A stretch of DNA of 64,000 nucleotides from an uncultured Ignavibacteriales bacterium (GCA_964523575.1 CAZGAV010000010.1:5466-69465); one strand, 5' to 3'. Positions 278 through 10,674 are shown, counted from the stretch's first letter. Notes: generated from the sequence alone by a model not told the origin. A program made the numbers and translations.

Positions 278-293
278 TGGCATAACACTTGCA
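278..293 (+). promoter_or_regulatory. sigma-54 (RpoN) -24/-12 promoter
   Basis: TGGCATaacacTTGCA matches consensus TGGCAC-N5-TTGCW with a single mismatch (T for C at the end of the -24 hexamer). GG and GC are correctly spaced. It sits 26 bp upstream of ATG 319, and a sigma-54 activator gene lies in the same cluster. Confidence 0.6.
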
Positions 294-318
294 AAGAGAA
301 CGCTCAGAGGTCATAACC

Positions 319-1305
319 ATGAGATATGCGATACCGATATCGAACAGGCGTATAGCGCCGCGATGCACCTTTGCGGAATCACTCCTCCTGCTTGTGGTTT
401 CGCAAAACCGGATCAAATCGCAACAAACGTACAATATGGCCGGCTATGGATTGCTCTCGTTGGCTAAGGCTCTGGCAGAGAACAGGATCGACACGCTTAT
501 CTGCGGTGGAATAAGCCGGGAGAACAGAGCCTACCTCGAGCTGCAAAATATCGATATTATCGACAATGTTGCCTCGACGGTAGATGATATAATCGAGAGC
601 CTGCGGAACGGATTGCTGCATCCGGGATACGGGCTTGGCGGACGTCAGGTGAAATCAACCGTCGGCGATACGAAGGCCGCACTCGCGGCTGGACAAGTTG
701 ACCTGATAGATTGTCTCGCATGTCAAAATCGTGTGTGCCTTCGCGGACAGAACTGCCTTGATTCCAGGCTCGATTTTCCGAAACCGGCGAAAGAAGACCG
801 CCGCATCTGCGAGGCGTCGATGGATATCGCCTGCGAGCGCGAACGAACTCTCTGCCGCCTTTCGGAATTGGTCTATTTCTGTCTCGAGATGAAGTACCGG
901 AAAATCGGTATTGCATTCTGTATCGATTTACTCGAGCCGACTGAAATACTGGTCCGTGTCCTGAGGCGATTTTTTGAAGTTGCACCTGTTTCATGCAAGG
1001 TCGGAGGAATACATCTCGCCGACCCGTATGGCTCCGAATCGTCCGTCGACAAGACGGGGGAAGATCGGTACGATGTCGCCTGTAATCCAATCGGACAGGC
1101 GGAGATTCTCAACCATATGCATACTGACCTGAATGTCATTATCGGTATTTGTATGGGTGCCGATTGTGTCTTCAGCCGATATAGTCAGGCACCGGTGACA
1201 ACTCTTTTTGTGAAGGACAAGTCGCTGGCCAATAATCCCATCGGAGCAGTGTATTCCGATTATTACCTTAAGGAGGCGGCGAGCGCTTCCGTGCAGCGAA
1301 CATGA
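319..1305 (+). CDS. NifX/NifB-C-like FeMo-cluster-binding-fold domain fused to a DUF1847-like Cys-rich metal-binding domain
   Basis: ORF 289-1305 trimmed to ATG 319, which has AGAGG upstream; earlier codons would overlap the -24/-12 promoter. The N-terminal ~105 aa (MRYAIPIS...DTLICGGISRENRAYLELQNIDII) resemble the dinitrogenase FeMo-cofactor-binding fold. The C-terminal part has Cys clusters (DCLACQNRVCLRGQNC, CNPIGQA, ICMGADC) like DUF1847. Families recalled from motifs, not searched. Confidence 0.55.
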   Translation: MRYAIPISNRRIAPRCTFAESLLLLVVSQNRIKSQQTYNMAGYGLLSLAKALAENRIDTLICGGISRENRAYLELQNIDIIDNVASTVDDIIESLRNGLLHPGYGLGGRQVKSTVGDTKAALAAGQVDLIDCLACQNRVCLRGQNCLDSRLDFPKPAKEDRRICEASMDIACERERTLCRLSELVYFCLEMKYRKIGIAFCIDLLEPTEILVRVLRRFFEVAPVSCKVGGIHLADPYGSESSVDKTGEDRYDVACNPIGQAEILNHMHTDLNVIIGICMGADCVFSRYSQAPVTTLFVKDKSLANNPIGAVYSDYYLKEAASASVQRT

Positions 1306-1903: not shown

Positions 1904-2043
1904 AGTCAACTACCGGCCGTCGGACATGGGGAACTCAGCTGACCGGGTTCGTATGATGAGAATTAATTTTCAATCGGGGGTTGTATTTGCAGACTGATCT
2001 TGCATATTATAGGGAAGAATTGACGGACTGGCAGGTACGAGAG

Positions 2044-3354
2044 ATGGAAAAAAAGCTCAGCCAGCTCATTTTCAACAGCATCAGTGACGGTGTTTTCACG
2101 GTCGATCGGAATTGTATTATCATGTCATTCAATAAATCGGCCGAGAAAATCACCGGTTTTATGGCGTCGGAGGCTGTTGGAAAACATTGTTTCGATATTT
2201 TCCGCACCGACCTTTGTCACCGGCAGTGCGCATTAAAGGATACCCTCAAGACTCATAATCAGATCCAGAACGCACGCGTGAAGATCATTACGCGGGACGG
2301 CCGGGAATTGCCGATCAGCGTGACGACGACTATGCTCAAAGACGACCAGGGCGAGATTATCGGCGCCGTCGAATTCTTCCGCGACCTGTCGGAAGTTGAG
2401 CATTTGCGCAAAACCCTCGATCAGAAGCGGGCCCTCGAGGATATCGTCAGTGTCAACCCGAAGATGCATGACTTGATAAATCTGCTGCCCGATGTCGCGG
2501 AATCCGAATGCAGCGTTCTCATCGAAGGTCCCAGCGGCTCCGGCAAGGAGCTTTTCGCTCAGGTTATTCATAACCTCAGTCCGCGTCGGTATGGCCCCTA
2601 TATCAAGATAAATTGCGCCGCACTGCCGGCCAGTCTTCTCGAATCGGAACTGTTCGGCTACGAAAAAGGCGCTTTTACCGATGCCAAGCGCGACAAGCCG
2701 GGGCAATTCAGCCTGGCCAACGGTGGCACCCTCCTGCTCGATGAAATCAGCGAGATGGATATTTCCCTGCAGGTCAAGCTGCTCCGCGTCCTCAATAATG
2801 GCGAATATCGGCCGCTGGGATCGACCAGGACATTTCACACCGATGCACGTATCATCGCCGCCACTAATGCGGATATGGGCGATTTTATCGCTGAGGGGAA
2901 ATTTCGGGAAGATCTTTACTACCGGATAAACGTGGTCAACGTAGCCATTCCTCCATTGCGCGAGCGGCCCGAGGACATTCCGCTTCTCGTGGATCATTTT
3001 CTGGAGGTGTACCGCAAGAAAAGTCACAAAACGATCGAACGGATTTCGCCCAAAGCGTTGTCCGTATTGCGCCGGCATTCATTCCCTGGTAACGTTCGAG
3101 AACTGGAAAACGCGGTCGAACACGCATTTGTCATGTGTCACGGCAACGAGATTCAGGTCGATCATCTTCCCCCGCATATTATAGCGGAGAGTATCCCCGG
3201 CCAGATAACAGCGTCGCGGGAGACCGGTGAGAAGGAGATCATTCAGGAAGCACTGCAGAGATATAACGGCAACAGGTCCCGTGCAGCGATCGAACTGGGT
3301 ATGCATCGATCGACGCTATGGCGGAAAATAAAAACGCTTGGGATAAAAATCTGA
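2044..3354 (+). CDS. sigma-54-dependent transcriptional activator (PAS sensor - AAA+ - Fis-type HTH)
   Basis: PAS region (LIFNSISDGVFTVD...ITGF), Walker A GPSGSGKE, GAFTGA-loop variant YEKGAFTDA, Walker B LLLDEI, and C-terminal HTH SRAAIELGMHRSTLWRKIK. The start is uncertain: ATG 2044 is preferred over TTG 1981, which abuts its putative RBS. Confidence 0.9.
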   Translation: MEKKLSQLIFNSISDGVFTVDRNCIIMSFNKSAEKITGFMASEAVGKHCFDIFRTDLCHRQCALKDTLKTHNQIQNARVKIITRDGRELPISVTTTMLKDDQGEIIGAVEFFRDLSEVEHLRKTLDQKRALEDIVSVNPKMHDLINLLPDVAESECSVLIEGPSGSGKELFAQVIHNLSPRRYGPYIKINCAALPASLLESELFGYEKGAFTDAKRDKPGQFSLANGGTLLLDEISEMDISLQVKLLRVLNNGEYRPLGSTRTFHTDARIIAATNADMGDFIAEGKFREDLYYRINVVNVAIPPLRERPEDIPLLVDHFLEVYRKKSHKTIERISPKALSVLRRHSFPGNVRELENAVEHAFVMCHGNEIQVDHLPPHIIAESIPGQITASRETGEKEIIQEALQRYNGNRSRAAIELGMHRSTLWRKIKTLGIKI

Positions 3355-3598: not shown

Positions 3599-3747
3599 AA
3601 CAAAAAATGGAAATCCCTTGTCCTGTTTTGACTTAAATGCTAATTGACGCCATTTCAATAGGTTACGAAAATCTCTTCCGGAGAATCCCAGCCTCTCCGC
3701 CAGTATCAGAAGATACTTTTTGGCTGTCGCGGGGGCAGAGGCCCCTC

Positions 3748-3820
3748 TTCTGCTGTCGCGTGGATGACCGGAGTTCCTACTTCAAAAGTAAAGTTCTATA
3801 ATTGTCCCAGCTTGCCCGCT
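3748..3820 (+). repeat. 73-bp perfect direct repeat, copy 1
   Basis: TTCTGCTGTCGCGTGGATGACCGGAGTTCCTACTTCAAAAGTAAAGTTCTATAATTGTCCCAGCTTGCCCGCT is identical to 3926-3998. Confidence 0.9.
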
Positions 3821-3925
3821 GCCAGAAGGCAGTTTTCGGCTGTCGCCATTATGACCTGACTATAATCCCAGAGTAACGAGAGTTCTATACTTGTCCCATC
3901 TTCCCCGACACGAATCCATCGTGTT

Positions 3926-3998
3926 TTCTGCTGTCGCGTGGATGACCGGAGTTCCTACTTCAAAAGTAAAGTTCTATAATTGTCCCAGCTTGCCCGCT
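3926..3998 (+). repeat. 73-bp perfect direct repeat, copy 2
   Basis: Identical to 3748-3820; the copies are offset by 178 bp. Confidence 0.9.
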
Positions 3999-4040
3999 CT
4001 TAGAATCACTTGTGAGCGTAGCGAATTAGTGATTCTTAGA
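3998..4040. other. Long imperfect hairpin at the boundary between the repeat array and the GIY-YIG unit
   Basis: Left arm TCTTAGAATCACT (3998-4010) pairs with right arm AGTGATTCTTAGA (4028-4040): 9 bp, one mismatch, then 3 bp, with a 17-nt loop. It lies immediately 5' of the sequence shared by both GIY-YIG copies (CCCTGAGCTTTAGCGA, 4041-4056). Confidence 0.6.
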
Positions 4041-4083
4041 CCCTGAGCTTTAGCGAAGGGCTGATTCTGTCGGGATTGCACTC

Positions 4084-4368
4084 ATGTGGTACATATATAT
4101 CCTGGAATGCCGTGACGGTTCCTATTACACCGGTGTCGCCAAAGACGTAAGAGCGCGGCTGAATAAGCATAATCCCGGCAAGGGCGCGAAATATACGCGG
4201 ATGAAGCGCCCGTGCACCATCATTTATGTCGAGGAACATCCGGATGAAAGCTCGGCACGCCGTCGTGAAATGGAGATCAAGGGCTGGCGGCGCGATAAGA
4301 AAGAAGGATTAATCCGTGGGTTTCCTTCGTCGGCCCTGGATGACCTCCTCAGGATCTCCGGGCAATAG
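4084..4368 (+). CDS. Small GIY-YIG nuclease superfamily protein (UPF0213/YhbQ-like), copy 1
   Basis: 94 aa. MWYIYILECRDGSYYTGVAKDVRARLNKHN...YTR...EIKGWRRDKK carries the GIY-YIG core (YIY...YYTG, R..RL..H, E..IK). 83 of 94 residues are identical to the ORF at 10345-10629. Confidence 0.9.
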   Translation: MWYIYILECRDGSYYTGVAKDVRARLNKHNPGKGAKYTRMKRPCTIIYVEEHPDESSARRREMEIKGWRRDKKEGLIRGFPSSALDDLLRISGQ

Positions 4369-4610
4369 CCCTCCGACGAATCCTACCTCCTCCGCCAGTA
4401 TCGGAAGATACTCTTTGGCTGTCGCGGGGGCAGGGCCCCTTTTCTGCTGTCGCATGGATGATCTCACAATATTCCCAGAGTAACCAAAGTTCGAAACTTG
4501 TCCCAGCCTCCCCGCTGCCAGAAGGCAGTTTTTGGCTGTCGCCATTATGACCTGACTATAATCCCAGAGTAACCAGAGTTCGATATTTGTCCCAGCTTTC
4601 TCCGCCACAT
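4369..4610 (+). repeat. Modular non-coding repeat array B (homologous to array A)
   Basis: Hairpins at 4398-4413 (AGTATC-GGAA-GATACT), ~4427-4439 (GGGGC...GCCCC) and 4516-4527 (TGCC-AGAA-GGCA). Each is followed by a T-run and CTGTCGC (4419-4425, 4447-4453, 4536-4542). The ~59-bp block 4536-4595 is near-identical to 3840-3898. Confidence 0.7.
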
Positions 4611-4772: not shown

Positions 4773-4801
4773 TTGACGTCGGCAATGCCTTTTTGTATAT
4801 T
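4773..4801 (+). promoter_or_regulatory. sigma-70-type promoter for the two-gene cassette
   Basis: -35 TTGACG (4773-4778), 17-nt spacer, -10 TATATT (4796-4801). It lies ~50 bp upstream of ATG 4854, which has an AGGTGA RBS. Confidence 0.55.
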
Positions 4802-4853: not shown

Positions 4854-6665
4854 ATGTATAAAAATTCTTATTGGAAGAATAGGGGTAATCCGTGGGAATA
4901 TGATTCGGGTCCTCCGAAAAATCTATGTTGGCCGAGGTTATTTTCGGAGACGCCCAATTATCGCCGGCTTTCTCTGACGGCATTAGGCAGCGAGAAATTC
5001 AGGTGGCATTTCGGCCCGATGTATTTCCGCGGTCGAACGGGGGCCGGCAGAGTTAAAATTGTCATCATCGGTCAAGAAGGCGCGCAGGATGAGTGTCTTG
5101 CACACAGAGCATTTGTTGGCAGCACGGGAAGCAGGCTACAATATCTTCTTAATTTCATGGGGTTGGATTATTCCTATCTTTTCGTAAACACCTTCGTGTA
5201 CCCAATATACGGCCAATACGCCAGTTACTTCAAATGGCTGGCGCAAAATCTGGAGTCGCCGATTGTCCAGCATCGGCATGATATATTCAATTACATTCTG
5301 AAGAAAAACGATGTCCGGTTGGTTGTTGCGGTCGGGAAAGCCGCTGGAGAGTCGGTTATAACATGGGTAGAAAGCCGCGGCGGAACAGGCCCGGATGGTA
5401 CGGGTGATCTTTCAACCTGCAGCGGAAGTTTCCTCGATCCCAAGACCAGGATTGTCGGGGTTCGTCATCCGGGAGGGGCCAAAATCCCCGGAGAAATCGC
5501 CGAAATAAAACAGAGCTTTCAAGACGCCATAGACAAAATTAATACCTGGATTAAGCAAGATTCGGCCTGGTTGCCCCCCGACCCCGGAATGACAAGAGAT
5601 TTGAGTCTCCCATATTCATTCGGTAAAGCCGCCATTCCTTTTCGAGATTTGCCTTTTGGTATAACCTGGAGATTGGGAAAAGGCAGCACAACGAGTAACA
5701 GAAAGGATTCTCAACGATCGATACAATTGTTTTCGGCCAGCGGCAAATATAATAATTCTGGGGATAAAATCGTATACGCCGATTCAGCCCCCGGGACTGC
5801 GGAGGGGTATTCCGAAAAACCCGGTGATGTACCGTACGAACCGCAGGTTGCCGATTACAGGGATTACGATAAGGGGCCCGGCCTGTCGTTTGCACGCTTG
5901 TTCATGGGCGGCAAAAAGGATCTTGCCTGGCCGGATTTTTCGACCTTGGGAGTAAAATCTGACATATCGCTGGGCTATGGCCCGATTTATAGAGGTCGGC
6001 CAGGTAAAGCGACATTTCTCATCCTGGCAGATCAGCAATCTCATGATGATCTTTTTACCGGACGGGCCCTAACCGGTGAGTCCGGGCAGAGATTCCAGGC
6101 GTTTCTGAAAGCGATGGGTATTACCAGATCATATTGTATTCTGCGTATTTTGCCGGTGGACATGTTGGATCTCACTCCAGCCAAACGAAAATCCATAGTC
6201 ACCAATACGGAGATAGTAAAAATCTATGACGCCTTTCTTGACAAGATACTGGCCAAGAAGAAAACCAAATTGATATTAACTTTGGGTGAAATGTCGGCGA
6301 CATTGATTCAAAAATTGCAGACAGCGCCGATAGACGTCATAAATCTCCGCTCATGGCTTCAATCAGGGGCCCTGAGTGACTGGCAGAGTGCCATAAATAG
6401 CATCAAGACAAAGTCATATCCCAAAGATATTACCAATCCGTCATTTACATATAATGGCGGACGATGGCAAATACCAGGCTATGATTTGCCCTACGGGACA
6501 TTGAAATGGCTGGGCAGTTCGGGAGATCGGGCGCGAAGAGCCAAGGATAGTGCCGGGCAATGGTCAGCAGGATATTATAAACTATTCATGCCTCAATGGG
6601 CTTTCTCTCTGGCTCCTCCGCCGCTGTCCAATAGTGAGGCAAATTCCATAGCCAAGCATCCATAG
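4854..6665 (+). CDS. Protein with two tandem uracil-DNA-glycosylase-superfamily-like domains (function unknown)
   Basis: ORF 4662-6665 trimmed to ATG 4854 (AGGTGA 7 nt upstream; earlier codons overlap the promoter). Domain 1: VKIVIIGQEGAQDE..AFVGSTGSRL..LFVNTFVYP...VGVRHPGG mirrors UDG motif A (GxxPG..E...PFvG.aG), the N/F-containing strand and motif B (HPS). Domain 2: FLILADQQSHDDLFTGRALTGESGQRF...YCILRILP is a degenerate second copy. Fold call from motifs only. Confidence 0.55.
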   Translation: MYKNSYWKNRGNPWEYDSGPPKNLCWPRLFSETPNYRRLSLTALGSEKFRWHFGPMYFRGRTGAGRVKIVIIGQEGAQDECLAHRAFVGSTGSRLQYLLNFMGLDYSYLFVNTFVYPIYGQYASYFKWLAQNLESPIVQHRHDIFNYILKKNDVRLVVAVGKAAGESVITWVESRGGTGPDGTGDLSTCSGSFLDPKTRIVGVRHPGGAKIPGEIAEIKQSFQDAIDKINTWIKQDSAWLPPDPGMTRDLSLPYSFGKAAIPFRDLPFGITWRLGKGSTTSNRKDSQRSIQLFSASGKYNNSGDKIVYADSAPGTAEGYSEKPGDVPYEPQVADYRDYDKGPGLSFARLFMGGKKDLAWPDFSTLGVKSDISLGYGPIYRGRPGKATFLILADQQSHDDLFTGRALTGESGQRFQAFLKAMGITRSYCILRILPVDMLDLTPAKRKSIVTNTEIVKIYDAFLDKILAKKKTKLILTLGEMSATLIQKLQTAPIDVINLRSWLQSGALSDWQSAINSIKTKSYPKDITNPSFTYNGGRWQIPGYDLPYGTLKWLGSSGDRARRAKDSAGQWSAGYYKLFMPQWAFSLAPPPLSNSEANSIAKHP

Positions 6666-6678
6666 GAGGTACGCGCAA

Positions 6679-9600
6679 ATGGAGAAAATCAAATTGGGGG
6701 CAAATACCAAATATGCCCTCGAGGGTCGTGTCGTCTCTCTGGATGCAGAGTCGACAGTTTTCGAATCGGGAGTGATATATATTGAGGGTGATACGATTGT
6801 CGACGTGAGGAAGTCGTCGCAATCCCCTCCTCAGGGATTCACCAAGAAAGACATCATCAAAACCGGCGGAACCATCTATCCGGGTTTGATCGAGTTGCAC
6901 AATCATCTCAGTTATAATATCCTGCCTATGTGGGACGTGCCGAAGACGTTTTTCAATCGTGATCAGTGGCGAAGACACCCGGATTACAAGAAAAAAATGA
7001 CCGGTCCTATGCGGATCTTAGGGAAAATCGACGGTTACCTTCAAGCCATTGTCAGATATGTCGAATGCAAATTGTTATTTTCCGGGGTGACGTCGTCTCA
7101 GGGGATAACACTCTCCATCGCGGCCAAAATCCAGAAGTTGTACAAAGGGGTGGTCCGAAATGTCGAGCAGACAATAGATGATGATCTGCCCGGCGCTGAT
7201 ACCAGAATTGCCGATGTAGATGCAAAAGATGCGGCGCATTTTCAAAAGATACTGGAGAAGTGCAAGAACTGCTACTTAATACATCTGGCAGAAGGTGTCA
7301 ACACCAGCGCCAATAAACACTTTAAAGCGCTGCAAGTGTCCCCTGATAACTGGGCCATTACGGATAAACTGGCGGGGATACACTCGGTCGGATTATATCC
7401 CGAAGATTTTAAGGTCATGCGCGATCATAACGGTTCCATTATATGGTCGCCGATGAGTAATTTTCTCCTGTACGGAACAACGGCTGATATAAAATCGGCC
7501 AAGAAAAACGAACTATTGATCGGCATGGGATCCGACTGGTCAGCCAGCGGCAGCAAAAACCTGCTTTGCGAACTCAAAGTGGCTCATTTGTTCAATAAAA
7601 ACAATGGCAATCTATTTACCGACGAACAACTGATACGAACAGTGACAACCGACGCCGCAAAAATCCTGCACTGGGATAAAAAAATAGGAAGTCTCGAGAA
7701 AGGGAAAAAGGCGGATTTGATAGTCCTGAGGGGCAAGAAAGGGGAACCCTGCACCAATCTTATAAACTCCAACGAACATCAAATCATTCTTGTGGTTATC
7801 GATGGATGGCCAAGATTCGGTTACAAGCGCTTTTTGGGTAAATTTGACGTCACATTGGAAAAGGTAAGAATCGGCACCTATACCAGGTATATGAATCTGA
7901 AAAACGAATCGGAGAATATAATAGACATCGACGTTTCATTTAAGGATGCGCAAAAGAAATTGATTAAAGGTATGCGAGACCTTCCTCAGCTTGCCAAACA
8001 ACAGGAGGACTACGACAGCGGCATTTTCGCCGGCACAACCTTTATCTCGGAACACCAATCTGACGTTAGTATATTTTTGGAGCATGAAGACCATGAGGGC
8101 AGCTCTCAGCGACATCATTTTGGTGCGGAATTTTCCTGTGGAGGGCTCTTCGATCAGGGCGCGACCGTCTATTCCGAGATATTGGAGGGCCTGGAGCTCG
8201 ATCCGCCGACCATCGCAGATGACCATCGTTATTTTGACAAACTGGCCAGACAAATGAACCTGCCTGATTACATAGCCGCCGGGCTGCCGGGATACTATGG
8301 AAGAAAAGTCACAATATCAGCTGCCGACAGCGTGTCGCGTAACAAAAGCTATCTAAAGCGGTCGAATTTCGATTCAATTCAATCCTTGGCCACCTTCCGC
8401 ATGACACCGGGATATCTGCACCCAAATGACCGACTGACCATTATCGATCAGGCAATATCCATACTAAAAAATGCCTATGTTCATTTGCCTTTGAAAAGGG
8501 CCAGACATGCGTCCAACCCCCTGAAGCGGCTGGATTTATTGCGCGATGCGGTGCAATATGATGATGATTATAATTCCGAGTTGGAGTTTCACTCCGAGAT
8601 AATCCAGATATTTAATTCATTACGGGATCTGCATACGGTCTACCATTTGCCTGCGCCATTCAATGACAAGGTTGTCTTTGTCCCCTTCATGATTGAGGAA
8701 TGCTACGAAGGCGAAGAACCCAAATACATCATTTCGCGAATAATGAGCGATGATGTTCCCTCGAGTTTTAAGATCGGTGTCGAGGTCACCCATTGGAATA
8801 ATATACCTATCAGGAGGGCTATCGCCTCCAATGGGGATCGCTATGCGGGCAGCAATAAGGCGGCCAGATTTGCAAGAGGTCTGAATTCGATGACCTTCAG
8901 GCACCTGGAGGTCATGCTGCCGCCGGAAGAAGAATCAGTCACCCTTAATTATCGAGACCCCGGGTCTGGTAAGAGGACGAAGGGCATAAAGAGGAGAATC
9001 AGCTTCCCTTGGTTGGTGGGATCGGTCAACTCAGAATACATGCTGAACATGGAAAACGGCTGGCGTGCGGCGCATCAAACGTTGTCCGGCTATGATTATA
9101 ACACTCTTTTGGTTCAGAACACACGAAAGGCCTTTTTTGCCCCCGGCCAATTATATAAGCGCAAGCTTTCTGAGGGCAGCAACAAACGCGAAAATCCTTT
9201 CTATGGATTTGAAGAGACGCGTTTCCCCAATCACTTCCGCTGCAAAAAAGTAACGCATGAGGGAAAATCATACGGTTATATCCGCATTTTCTCCTTTGAC
9301 ACCGACAACCCTTTGGGGTTGGCCGAAGAATTCGCTCGGCTGCTTCACAGGATGCCGCCGACGGGAGTGATTCTGGATGTTCGCAATAATGGAGGCGGCC
9401 ACATCCGGGCGGCCGAGTATATGCTGCAAACTCTTTCGAAAAAATATATCAACACGGAAGCGGCGCAGTTTATCAATTCCGACTTCATTGAATATTTATG
9501 CAGGGTTCATTCCCCTTCGAATATAAATGAGCAGTTGGATTTGTCCAGATGGCGAGATTCCCTGGATGAGTTAAGAAATACCGGGGAAGATTATAGTCAG

Positions 9601-10044
9601 GGATTTCCGCTGACACCGCGGTCCCTGTTGAAACGATTTCGGTCGAATCGAGGTTACAAGCTGGTATTGATCACCGACGCCTTATGCTATAGCGCCACCG
9701 ATATATTTGCTTCAGGATTTCAAGATAATAAACTCGGTACAATACTGGGTATACATGAAAACACCGGTGCGGGTGGCGCCAACGTGTGGACTCATTCGAT
9801 CCTTTACGAGCTGACCCTGGATGTGAATGGGGATTCACAGTATTTCGAACCCCTCCCTTGTGGCGCCAATTTCACTGTAGCCATACGCCGCATGTTGCGG
9901 ACCGGCGACAATCAGGGCCTGCCTTTGGAGGATCTAGGTGTCGAACCGGATTATATCCACCGGATGACAAAAGCCGATTTGCTGGGTAAAGACCATGCAA
10001 ACAGGGATCTTATTGCCAGAGCGTGTGAAATTCTTCGTGAGTGA
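6679..10044 (+). CDS. Fusion protein: N-terminal COG0402-type (nucleobase/nucleoside deaminase-like) amidohydrolase and C-terminal peptidase S41 (tail-specific/tricorn-like) domain
   Basis: RBS TAGGAGGT precedes ATG 6679. Amidohydrolase motifs: PGLIELHNHLSY (HxH), IHLAEG (HxxE), HSVGL, SPMSNFLL, GMGSDWSAS, GSLEKGKKADLIVL. S41 motifs: DLHTVYHLP helper region, GVILDVRNNGGGH, LVLITDALCYSATDIFASGF (Ser nucleophile context), TILGIHENTGAGGANV. 1121 aa, with no signal peptide evident. Confidence 0.75.
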   Translation: MEKIKLGANTKYALEGRVVSLDAESTVFESGVIYIEGDTIVDVRKSSQSPPQGFTKKDIIKTGGTIYPGLIELHNHLSYNILPMWDVPKTFFNRDQWRRHPDYKKKMTGPMRILGKIDGYLQAIVRYVECKLLFSGVTSSQGITLSIAAKIQKLYKGVVRNVEQTIDDDLPGADTRIADVDAKDAAHFQKILEKCKNCYLIHLAEGVNTSANKHFKALQVSPDNWAITDKLAGIHSVGLYPEDFKVMRDHNGSIIWSPMSNFLLYGTTADIKSAKKNELLIGMGSDWSASGSKNLLCELKVAHLFNKNNGNLFTDEQLIRTVTTDAAKILHWDKKIGSLEKGKKADLIVLRGKKGEPCTNLINSNEHQIILVVIDGWPRFGYKRFLGKFDVTLEKVRIGTYTRYMNLKNESENIIDIDVSFKDAQKKLIKGMRDLPQLAKQQEDYDSGIFAGTTFISEHQSDVSIFLEHEDHEGSSQRHHFGAEFSCGGLFDQGATVYSEILEGLELDPPTIADDHRYFDKLARQMNLPDYIAAGLPGYYGRKVTISAADSVSRNKSYLKRSNFDSIQSLATFRMTPGYLHPNDRLTIIDQAISILKNAYVHLPLKRARHASNPLKRLDLLRDAVQYDDDYNSELEFHSEIIQIFNSLRDLHTVYHLPAPFNDKVVFVPFMIEECYEGEEPKYIISRIMSDDVPSSFKIGVEVTHWNNIPIRRAIASNGDRYAGSNKAARFARGLNSMTFRHLEVMLPPEEESVTLNYRDPGSGKRTKGIKRRISFPWLVGSVNSEYMLNMENGWRAAHQTLSGYDYNTLLVQNTRKAFFAPGQLYKRKLSEGSNKRENPFYGFEETRFPNHFRCKKVTHEGKSYGYIRIFSFDTDNPLGLAEEFARLLHRMPPTGVILDVRNNGGGHIRAAEYMLQTLSKKYINTEAAQFINSDFIEYLCRVHSPSNINEQLDLSRWRDSLDELRNTGEDYSQGFPLTPRSLLKRFRSNRGYKLVLITDALCYSATDIFASGFQDNKLGTILGIHENTGAGGANVWTHSILYELTLDVNGDSQYFEPLPCGANFTVAIRRMLRTGDNQGLPLEDLGVEPDYIHRMTKADLLGKDHANRDLIARACEILRE

Positions 10045-10105
10045 CGTTGTCGGTGTAGATATACCAGACCTCGTGAGACATATTGTGTTTTATTGTAATT
10101 CACAA

Positions 10106-10330
10106 ATGGAGGTTCGTTCGTTGAAGCATCAGATTCGATCAGCGAGGGTGAAAAGGCTGGTATCGGAGTTGGCGGAGGCTTTAGGCAGCGATGCCATGGC
10201 GTACCGTGACTTTGAAATCCCGCGCTCGACAATCTATCGGTGGAAGAAAGCCTATGTCGAGAAGGGGGTAGACGGTCTGGTTCAGAGAAAGCCAATCGCC
10301 AGGACCCTGAGCTTTAGCGAGGACCAATCG
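10106..10330 (+). pseudogene. Truncated transposase N-terminal helix-turn-helix remnant
   Basis: ...DFEIPRSTIYRWKKAYVEKGVDGLVQRKP... matches the HTH found at the N-terminus of IS481/IS630/IS3-type transposases. No catalytic domain follows, and the frame runs into the GIY-YIG unit. Confidence 0.45.
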
Positions 10331-10344
10331 ATGCGGAGCATCTT

Positions 10345-10629
10345 ATGTGGTACATATATATCCTGGAATGCCGTGACGGTTCCTATTACACCGGTGTCGC
10401 CAAAGACGTAAGGGCGCGGCTGGATAAACATAATTCCGGCAAAGGGGCGAAATATACGCGGATGAAGCGCCCGTGCACCATCGTCTATGTCGAGGAACAT
10501 CCGGATGAAAGCTCGGCGCGCCGTCGTGAGCTGGAAATAAAAAGCTGGCGGCGCGATAAGAAAGAAGAATTAATCCGCGGGTTTCCTTCGTCGGTCCCGG
10601 ACGGCCTCCCCAGTATCTCCGGGCAATAG
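10345..10629 (+). CDS. Small GIY-YIG nuclease superfamily protein, copy 2
   Basis: 94 aa, with 83/94 identity to copy 1. Shared flanks: CCCTGAGCTTTAGCGA (10305-10320 vs 4041-4056) and the 3' ...ACGAATCC.ACCTCCTCC. Confidence 0.9.
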   Translation: MWYIYILECRDGSYYTGVAKDVRARLDKHNSGKGAKYTRMKRPCTIVYVEEHPDESSARRRELEIKSWRRDKKEELIRGFPSSVPDGLPSISGQ

Positions 10630-10654
10630 TCCATCAACGAATCCAACCTCCTCC

Positions 10655-10674
10655 GGGGGCAGAAGCCCCTTTTT
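10655..10674 (+). terminator. Short GC hairpin plus T-run after GIY-YIG copy 2
   Basis: GGGGGC-AGAA-GCCCC followed by TTTTT. This is the same hairpin type as 3732-3745 and 4427-4439. Confidence 0.45.

Follow-up and report, generated by a model that had tools for sequence, protein, structure and literature searches.

We analysed a stretch of 64,000 nucleotides (nt; hereafter the window) from an uncultured Ignavibacteriales bacterium (GCA_964523575.1, CAZGAV010000010.1:5466-69465). An open reading frame (ORF) confirmed at window positions 6679-10044 starts with ATG and encodes 1121 amino acids (aa), joining an amidohydrolase module to a CPAF-like peptidase of family S41. Directly upstream, at 4854-6665, lies a gene for a 603-aa protein with two uracil-DNA glycosylase (UDG) folds in tandem, assigned by sequence to the BdiUng family. 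Both genes and the features within them are on the + strand. The best-supported reading of our data is that the two genes form a conserved mobile module in which both enzymes, as judged from their sequences, retain their active-site residues. An earlier interpretation of the fusion gene from its nucleotide sequence, here called the sequence-only reading, was confined to 6679-10044, and the conserved UDG partner lies outside it.

The fusion protein and its two catalytic modules

The fusion gene is defined by its ORF, Pfam domains, homologues, an AlphaFold2 model and Foldseek. Pfam places Amidohydro_1 at aa 226-376 (E 6e-16, 59 bits against a cutoff of 25) and Peptidase_S41 (PF03572) at aa 865-1035 (E 3e-15, 56.8 bits against a cutoff of 24). 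The AlphaFold2 model, built from 117 homologues, has a predicted local distance difference test score (pLDDT) of 88.7 and a predicted template modelling score (pTM) of 0.86. In Foldseek searches of the PDB, the N-terminal half retrieves AtzA, TrzN, isocytosine deaminase and guanine deaminase (E 1e-15 to 1e-18), and the C-terminal half retrieves CPAF (3dor; E 3e-24, ~600 aligned columns). The sequence-only reading had proposed an amidohydrolase and an S41 peptidase in a single 1121-aa protein, and Pfam, AlphaFold2 and Foldseek agree with it. The sequence assigns the protein to the amidohydrolase superfamily and to peptidase family S41, outside all curated subfamilies.

The amidohydrolase module (aa 1-545; 6679-8313) consists of a composite beta domain, a TIM barrel and a conserved C-terminal extension of ~150 aa, and is delimited by the stand-alone homologues and the fold match. 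Stand-alone homologues are mostly 500-590 aa long and align over fusion residues ~10-540, so that residues 386-540 are part of the amidohydrolase module. The sequence-only reading had taken this part for a ~180-aa linker, which does not hold: the segment is conserved, and stand-alone homologues of 520-590 aa have it too. The only part of the fusion predicted to be disordered is the loop of aa 452-489 (8032-8145; pLDDT <50), with its acidic and His-rich HEDHE...RHH stretch; that this loop is a processing site is a guess. The N-terminus of the fusion forms a beta-strand of the amidohydrolase domain in the model, and the protein, which has no signal peptide, is predicted to be cytoplasmic, as had been proposed.

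The active site of the amidohydrolase comprises the HxH metal ligands H74 and H76 (6898-6906), the H202-L-A-E205-G segment with a metal ligand and the HxxE catalytic acid (7282-7296), H235 on beta-6 as a metal ligand or water-activating residue (7381-7383), and the beta-8 aspartate D286 of GSDW (7534-7536). All six residues are invariant in alignments of 29 and 117 full-length homologues. Among 150 diverse family representatives covering all architectures, each is retained in 140-149 (at least 93%, most at least 95%): 140 and 142 for H74 and H76, 146 and 143 for H202 and E205, 149 for H235 and 142 for D286. The metal-ligand series suspected from the sequence alone is therefore present. By its sequence, the site corresponds to the HxH, HxxE, H and D set of deaminase- and dechlorinase-type amidohydrolases and would be mononuclear and COG0402-like.

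Within this group the family stands apart. It carries a signature of its own, made up of W85, W97, T138-x-x-Q-G, R160-N-x-E163, WSPxSN at 256-261, DW at 286-287, GxKN at 291-294, E298, K300, W332 and D346. Its scores against the NCBIfam equivalogs stay below their cutoffs (guanine deaminase, 71 against 375; TRZ/ATZ hydrolase, 74 against 540; SsnA, 59 against 444; 8-oxoguanine deaminase, 62 against 532), and the deaminase matches are partial, covering only aa ~190-376 (barrel strands 5-8), so that the protein belongs to none of these four. With COG0402-type enzymes, namely guanine deaminase, AtzA, TrzN, 8-oxoguanine/isocytosine deaminase and MTA/SAH deaminase, it shares the fold and the full HxH, HxxE, H and D set, but it differs from them by the part of its signature within aa 80-225 (W85, W97, TxxQG, RNxE), by the ~150-aa C-terminal extension and by the linkage to a glycosylase and a protease. 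The sequence-only reading had suggested placing the subfamily by comparison with such enzymes; the comparison yields the fold of AtzA, TrzN and guanine deaminase, but not membership of the guanine deaminase or SsnA equivalogs. The closest solved relatives include AtzA, TrzN and hydroxydechloroatrazine ethylaminohydrolase, which displace N-alkylamino or chloro groups on heteroaromatic rings.

The peptidase module (aa 560-1121; 8356-10041) is built of a helical region, a PDZ-like insert and a catalytic domain, and resembles CPAF and tricorn. In addition to the Foldseek match, the NCBIfam model of CPAF aligns with aa 636-930 (score 50 against a cutoff of 250). Pfam finds S41 in all 42 members searched and a weak PDZ_4 in 7 of them. 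The DVRNNGGG segment (aa 900-907; 9376-9399), which is the S41 signature loop, aligns with DVRGNPGG of CtpB. Ser1005 (9691-9693), the predicted nucleophile, is invariant and aligns in a profile alignment with the CtpB residue altered in the S309A entries. At the position of the catalytic Lys of S41A peptidases (S309 + 25 = K334 in the CtpB register) stands Gly1030 (9766-9768), within an invariant GAGGANVW. H638 and H652 (FH...RDLHT; 8590-8634), both invariant, are candidate general bases, as possible counterparts of CPAF H105 or tricorn H746, and Glu1084 of PLEDLG (9928-9930), invariant in the 42 members and present in at least 90% of the 117 homologues, may be the third triad member, in the manner of E558 of CPAF.

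The protein thus belongs to family S41, with its domain above the cutoff and its Ser in conserved context, and it falls outside S41A (CtpA, Prc, CtpB), whose Ser-Lys dyad is missing its Lys here. Since Ser1005 is aligned, Gly1030 occupies the Lys position, and H638, H652 and Glu1084 are invariant or nearly so, a Ser/His(/Glu) arrangement like that of CPAF and tricorn is likely. The sequence-only reading had offered either a tricorn-like or an inactive site. The missing Lys (Gly1030 at the position of CtpB K334) and the tricorn/CPAF-like fold stand. The motifs had also been located correctly to within 1-2 nt: H74-N75-H76 lies at 6898-6906, H202-LAEG at 7282-7296, G284-SDWSAS at 7528-7548, D900-VRNNGGGH at 9376-9402, Y1004-SATD at 9688-9702 and T1029-GAGGA at 9763-9780. 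What the module has in common with the CPAF/tricorn core is the best structural match, the Ser in S41 context, the absence of the catalytic Lys and the invariant His and Glu candidates. Unlike CPAF, it is cytoplasmic and joined to an amidohydrolase, shares only ~15% identity with CPAF and stays below the cutoff of its model; unlike tricorn, it lacks beta-propellers. A profile trimmed to the helical and PDZ part did not retrieve CPAF, and Pfam gave no Tricorn_C1 match at E<=1.

The fusion had been described as unusual, which it is not. Among 5.8 billion proteins searched, over 120 clusters contain the full-length fusion at 41-62% identity; they come from Planctomycetota, Bacteroidota, Chloroflexota and one Asgard archaeon, and a scan of one genome per species gave at least 576 confirmed matches. 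With residues 1-540 as query, an exhaustive HMMER search yielded 598 clusters (50% identity) at E<=1e-30. The amidohydrolase family occurs in bacteria and archaea, and the majority of its members are stand-alone proteins without a peptidase. Cultured carriers include Pseudozobellia thermophila DSM 19858, Arenibacter amylolyticus AK53, Flavilitoribacter nigricans DSM 23189, Rhodocyclus purpureus DSM 168 and Niastella vici. The architecture is common, then, but its proteins carry generic names only and are annotated with no known pathway, and our literature searches, in a searchable literature that is incomplete, found no paper on the fusion or the gene pair. These are known folds in a multi-enzyme combination not described before, possibly with a defence glycosylase.

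The UDG-fold partner and the conserved pairing

The upstream gene is identified by the lengths of its homologues, a profile match to PDB 5gn2 (BdiUng of Bradyrhizobium diazoefficiens; E 4e-28) and Foldseek, in which BdiUng is the top match of a model with a pLDDT of 90.4. Its true start is ATG 4854 rather than GTG 4662, because the homologues, 603 aa in length, span residues 65-667 of the longer ORF. Two stretches of the protein belong to the UDG superfamily, and a family-4 UDG model matches residues 458-563 of the 667-aa ORF. Read from the sequence, an AGGAGG ribosome-binding site (6664-6669) overlaps the stop codon of the partner and precedes the ATG at 6679 by 9 nt, which makes an operon-type junction. 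A promoter-like TTGACG-17-TATATT (4773-4801, +), matching 10 of 12 consensus positions, lies ~50 nt upstream of the partner; it is weak evidence, since such sites are no commoner in the region than in shuffled sequence.

In the first UDG domain, motif A reads GQEGAQDE (aa 73-80; 5070-5093), where G73, Q74, G76, D79 and E80 are invariant and E75, retained in at least 90% of the long subfamily, occupies the position of the catalytic Asp of GQDPA/GQDPY. Asn112 of xNTF (5187-5189), at the position of the base-recognition Asn, and His205-Pro206 of a motif B-like HP (5466-5471) are invariant in both the long type and the BdiUng-like set, and the common short-type variants have them as well. The second domain (5961-6662) is degenerate, with ADQQSHDD in place of motif A, Arg in place of the Asn and no HP; D393, Q394, R431 and P434 are invariant in it. 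As BdiUng itself is dimeric (PMC5449639), the tandem partner may be a pseudo-dimer joined in one chain, with one of its pockets intact and the other degenerate. Across the family, motif A is GQDPA in BdiUng-like proteins, ASDPG or GQDPS in other short forms and GQEGA in the window's subfamily; the main variants in all subtypes retain the acidic motif-A residue, the xNTF Asn and HP. By sequence the partner is thus a member of the BdiUng-type UDG family and a predicted glycosylase. It shares with BdiUng the base-contact Asn and the HP motif, but differs in being a 603-aa tandem with a degenerate second domain and in having GQEGA instead of GQDPA.

BdiUng (Blr0248) is the founding member of a separate UDG family and a homodimer of 272-aa subunits (Chembazhi et al. 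2017, PMC5449639). It prefers single-stranded DNA, is insensitive to Ugi and fails to complement an ung mutant. It removes uracil, 5-hydroxymethyluracil and xanthine and leaves hypoxanthine and thymine in place (PMC5449639). The three bases excised are the hydrolytic deamination products of cytosine (C), 5-hydroxymethylcytosine (hmC) and guanine (G). The paper treats BdiUng as a stand-alone repair enzyme, and a term search of it (PMC5449639) turned up neither amidohydrolase nor operon, so that genomic context seems not to enter its discussion.

Partners were surveyed by phmmer searches of the ORFs called in 82 loci. A UDG-like gene directly adjoins the amidohydrolase gene in ~70 of the 82 loci, across many phyla, and no third gene family recurs among them; the one candidate, a cluster present in 12 loci, turned out to be antisense ORFs in high-GC genomes. 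Three arrangements are found: (a) a ~600-aa tandem UDG with the fused amidohydrolase-S41, as in the window, (b) a ~315-aa UDG with the fused amidohydrolase-S41, and (c) a ~260-300-aa UDG with a stand-alone amidohydrolase and no S41. In a few loci (L010, L025, L030), each half of the fusion has a gene of its own. Seen from the side of BdiUng-like genes, the amidohydrolase lies directly downstream in 5 of 5 places, with a 4-nt overlap, and BdiUng-like genes bearing GQDPAQHET stand directly upstream of stand-alone amidohydrolases (L081 among them). In single chains the UDG precedes the amidohydrolase (P0268, P0296) or follows it (P0245), and these fusions in both orders indicate that the coupling is physical as well as genomic. 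One further apparent UDG-amidohydrolase fusion (L063) was set aside because its middle reads as a frame-shifted high-GC translation, and two long ORFs (L017, L073) were upstream over-extensions from naive ORF calling. The two partners differ in charge: the isoelectric point (pI) of the window's UDG protein is 9.5 (family median ~9), whereas amidohydrolase and amidohydrolase-S41 proteins are acidic (medians 5.7-5.8).

The protease is, on the sequences, an accessory but recurrent third activity outside the core. S41 is lacking in arrangement (c) and in most family members, and it also occurs as a separate gene: a Variovorax plasmid encodes an S41 protein that shares 32% identity (E 6e-84) with the peptidase half of the fusion. 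A family member of 938 residues, on an Azospirillum plasmid, has two genes for S8 serine peptidases downstream of it. Two unrelated serine protease families have thus become linked to the amidohydrolase.

On Variovorax sp. RA8 plasmid 2 (L083, 2850-8500), all parts form an operon of separate genes flanked by ParD and Phd antitoxin genes: first S41, then a protein of 409 aa that weakly matches cytochrome P460, then the amidohydrolase and last a 287-aa protein whose match to UDG is marginal. The 938-aa member on Azospirillum argentinense plasmid p5 (L088, 2473-8981) has an N-terminal extension of ~430 aa without a recognised fold; extensions of ~430-460 aa and 110-190 aa, with no Pfam match, are found in P0337, P0378, P0282 and P0330. 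Sinorhizobium fredii pSfreNXT3b (L085) and Rhizobium sp. CB3060 (L086) share a block next to AbiH that holds a DUF5677 gene, the amidohydrolase, a 470-aa PD-T7-1-like protein, a hypothetical gene, an XRE regulator and an aminotransferase, and that may be a distinct multi-gene system around the same amidohydrolase. An identical UDG-amidohydrolase pair occurs on three contigs (L093, L094, L095) with different transposases (rve_3, DDE_3, DDE_Tnp_1, ISL3), preceded on two of them by a PNP_UDP_1-domain gene. Nitrifiers are frequent among loci with a stand-alone amidohydrolase and a short UDG, in a sample that was ranked by similarity: Nitrospira (L056, L060, L061, L066, L074, L076), Nitrosomonas (L069, L071) and Nitrososphaera (L065).

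Genomic surroundings of the module

In the window, the two-gene module is bracketed by 357-nt direct repeats that are 88% identical in DNA and are the sole two copies in the 64 kb. The upstream copy (4039-4394, +) and the downstream copy (10303-10655, +) each contain an intact gene for a 94-aa GIY-YIG protein (4084-4368 and 10345-10629); the two proteins are 88% identical. The GC content is 0.46-0.49 over the module, against ~0.55 around it. The repeat-bracketed layout suggests a cassette-like insertion or a recombination product.

In other genomes, defence, toxin-antitoxin or mobile-element genes lie within ~6 kb in ~8 of 13 annotated contexts, as a raw count. These contexts include nSTAND1, TIR, TPR-S and patatin genes; SLATT and TIR; an NB-ARC/WD40 protein; AbiH with a restriction endonuclease, a PLD protein and a PD-T7-1-like gene; ParD and Phd antitoxins; HNH and Fic; a PD-(D/E)XK nuclease with an HsdR fragment and an integrase; and the transposases beside the identical gene pair on three contigs. 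Some copies are on large plasmids. Relatives were absent from the phage genomes and viral contigs of INPHARED and IMG/VR, which argues for a function on the side of the host.

Around the module in the window, an ORF at 9995-10411 (+) overlaps the end of the fusion gene and encodes a transposase-type helix-turn-helix (HTH) at ~10211-10291 (HTH_28, HTH_23; E ~1e-6); it is probably the remnant of an insertion sequence (IS) element beside the downstream repeat. Upstream of the module, a 1.2-kb non-coding stretch (3650-4600) is rich in short repeats and has several terminator-like hairpins. Examples of repeat pairs are 3748-3827/3926-4005 (96%), 3677-3744/4372-4439 (85%) and 3790-3902/4486-4598 (91%). 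A 338-aa ORF at 289-1305 (+), unrelated to the fusion, has a weak sub-cutoff domain of the dinitrogenase FeMo-cofactor-binding type and DUF1847, and is followed downstream by a sigma-54 activator with a PAS domain (1981-3354).

Possible roles of the module

We tentatively favour, at somewhat less than even chances, a mobile module that deaminates and then excises and that is probably defensive; its substrate, the order of the reactions, the formation of a complex and the defence role are what we infer here. In this scheme, the amidohydrolase would hydrolyse an exocyclic C-N bond on a nucleobase, at an amino or N-substituted amino group, and yield an oxo-base of the uracil, 5-hydroxymethyluracil or xanthine type. 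The glycosylase partner would remove the oxo-base from DNA, and the abasic sites would block or break replicating DNA. The S41 module would add an accessory third activity, as an effector or as a processing or regulatory protease. The substrate is likely to be a nucleobase that belongs either to DNA or to the nucleotide pool, given the conserved BdiUng-type UDG directly upstream and sometimes fused, and the acidic pI of the amidohydrolase favours the (deoxy)nucleotide pool. In that variant, dCTP or its hydroxymethylated form (hm-dCTP) would be converted to a nucleotide of the dUTP type, which would be incorporated and then excised, a course paralleled by the lethal logic of dut/ung. Alternatively, the amidohydrolase may act on DNA held by the basic partner.

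The role would most likely be in conflict with phages or other mobile DNA. The genomic contexts favour such a role, in line with Brig1, Brig2 and Brig3, UDG-fold glycosylases that act as single-gene phage defences. By their description, these proteins, grouped here with the Dag glycosylases, resemble the window's partner as UDG-fold proteins of mobile low-GC islands, and they excise particular bases of phage DNA. They differ in being single-gene systems that act directly on phage-modified bases, and none is described with an amidohydrolase or a protease. Deaminases are known as immune effectors as well, among them dCTP deaminase and the amidohydrolase-fold proteins RADAR RdrB and Cad1. The nucleotide-deaminase defences are of the adenosine-deaminase type and have ATPase or CARF partners and no glycosylase. 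The fusion is matched by none of the models for these defences in PADLOC. A bolder version of the favoured scheme is possible and more doubtful: an immune module that deaminates, excises and degrades, composed of a TIM-barrel metal-dependent deaminase, a dedicated Ugi-insensitive UDG and a CPAF-like protease as third arm. Its targets, which share in that doubt, would be phage-specific bases or bases of replicating DNA, for example hmC or C converted to 5-hydroxymethyluracil (hmU) or U, or G converted to xanthine (X).

Several observations weigh against the favoured scheme. The 145 immediate neighbours in 37 genome loci are mostly genes of ordinary metabolism with few defence hits, and some contexts of the module are plain housekeeping. 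PADLOC (PADLOC-DB 2.0) matched neither the fusion nor the partner nor the plasmid homologues; its matches were limited to unrelated neighbouring genes, such as PD-T7-1. More distant plasmid-borne relatives have no UDG partner, and the pairing is therefore not universal for the family. We know of no TIM-barrel amidohydrolase that acts as a DNA deaminase, and the scheme offers no account of how damage to the cell's own DNA would be avoided. In addition, motif A of the window's subfamily has Glu for the catalytic Asp and Gly for the Pro, so that the glycosylase activity of the partner is not assured. BdiUng alone has been assayed in its family, in vitro, and its activity was weak (PMC5449639).

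The same enzymes could instead repair deamination and DNA-protein crosslink damage, for example under nitrosative stress, which we regard as unlikely. The protease would trim a crosslinked protein, the amidohydrolase would cut a base-N-linked adduct or a damaged base, and the glycosylase would remove uracil or xanthine for base excision repair, so that all three activities would fit a single chemical sequence. AtzB and AtzC, which remove N-alkylamines, offer a parallel for the cutting of an adduct, and the displacement of N-alkylamino or chloro groups by the closest solved relatives suits this step. The excision of xanthine and uracil by BdiUng (PMC5449639) is consistent with repair too, as are the contexts that are housekeeping or near RecJ and UvrD genes, the cytochrome P460-like gene in one operon and the nitrifiers among the stand-alone-type loci (six Nitrospira, two Nitrosomonas and Nitrososphaera). 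The nitrifier count, however, comes from a similarity-ranked sample, and the protease is lacking in most members, the nitrifier loci included. Repair also accords poorly with a patchy, apparently horizontal spread, in which many copies are on plasmids or flanked by IS, toxin-antitoxin or defence genes, and with the failure of BdiUng to rescue ung deficiency (PMC5449639).

Rather less probable is that the amidohydrolase is the sole effector, depleting or poisoning the nucleotide pool as dCTP deaminase or RADAR RdrB does, with UDG, DUF5677 and proteases as interchangeable sensors or regulators. The amidohydrolase is indeed the only universal component, and its partners vary (UDG-like, DUF5677, S41, S8 or none); the second UDG domain is degenerate, and motif A of the long subfamily departs from GQDP. 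Nevertheless, the glycosylase catalytic residues are retained in the long, BdiUng-like and common short subtypes, BdiUng is catalytically active (PMC5449639), and the amidohydrolase resembles neither RdrB nor the remaining deaminase defence models of PADLOC.

We consider least probable the breakdown or detoxification of a peptidyl-nucleoside or modified nucleoside or nucleotide, in which the peptidase would strip the peptide, the amidohydrolase would deaminate the base and the UDG-fold protein would act as an N-glycosidase on the free nucleotide: three physically linked hydrolases of suitable chemistry, all cytoplasmic, with acidic amidohydrolase proteins as in small-molecule enzymes and with plasmid and island locations that would suit resistance genes too, fit this idea, but no transporter or biosynthetic gene recurs nearby, the peptidase is optional, BdiUng needs an oligonucleotide, and the partner is strongly basic, as a nucleic-acid-binding protein is. 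The peptidyl-nucleoside-type substrate proposed in the sequence-only reading gained no specific support, with an optional peptidase and a conserved UDG partner.

If the role is repair or detoxification, the module would still represent a three-enzyme pathway not described before. If the pairing reflects a reaction sequence, the module would provide the first example of a deaminase of amidohydrolase fold coupled with a DNA glycosylase, the defence glycosylases would gain a multi-enzyme type, and there would be a reason for the existence of BdiUng, an orphan UDG of weak repair activity. If the immune module outlined above is true, bacteria would possess a counterpart of the APOBEC and UNG logic built from unrelated folds, and BdiUng would have a biological role.

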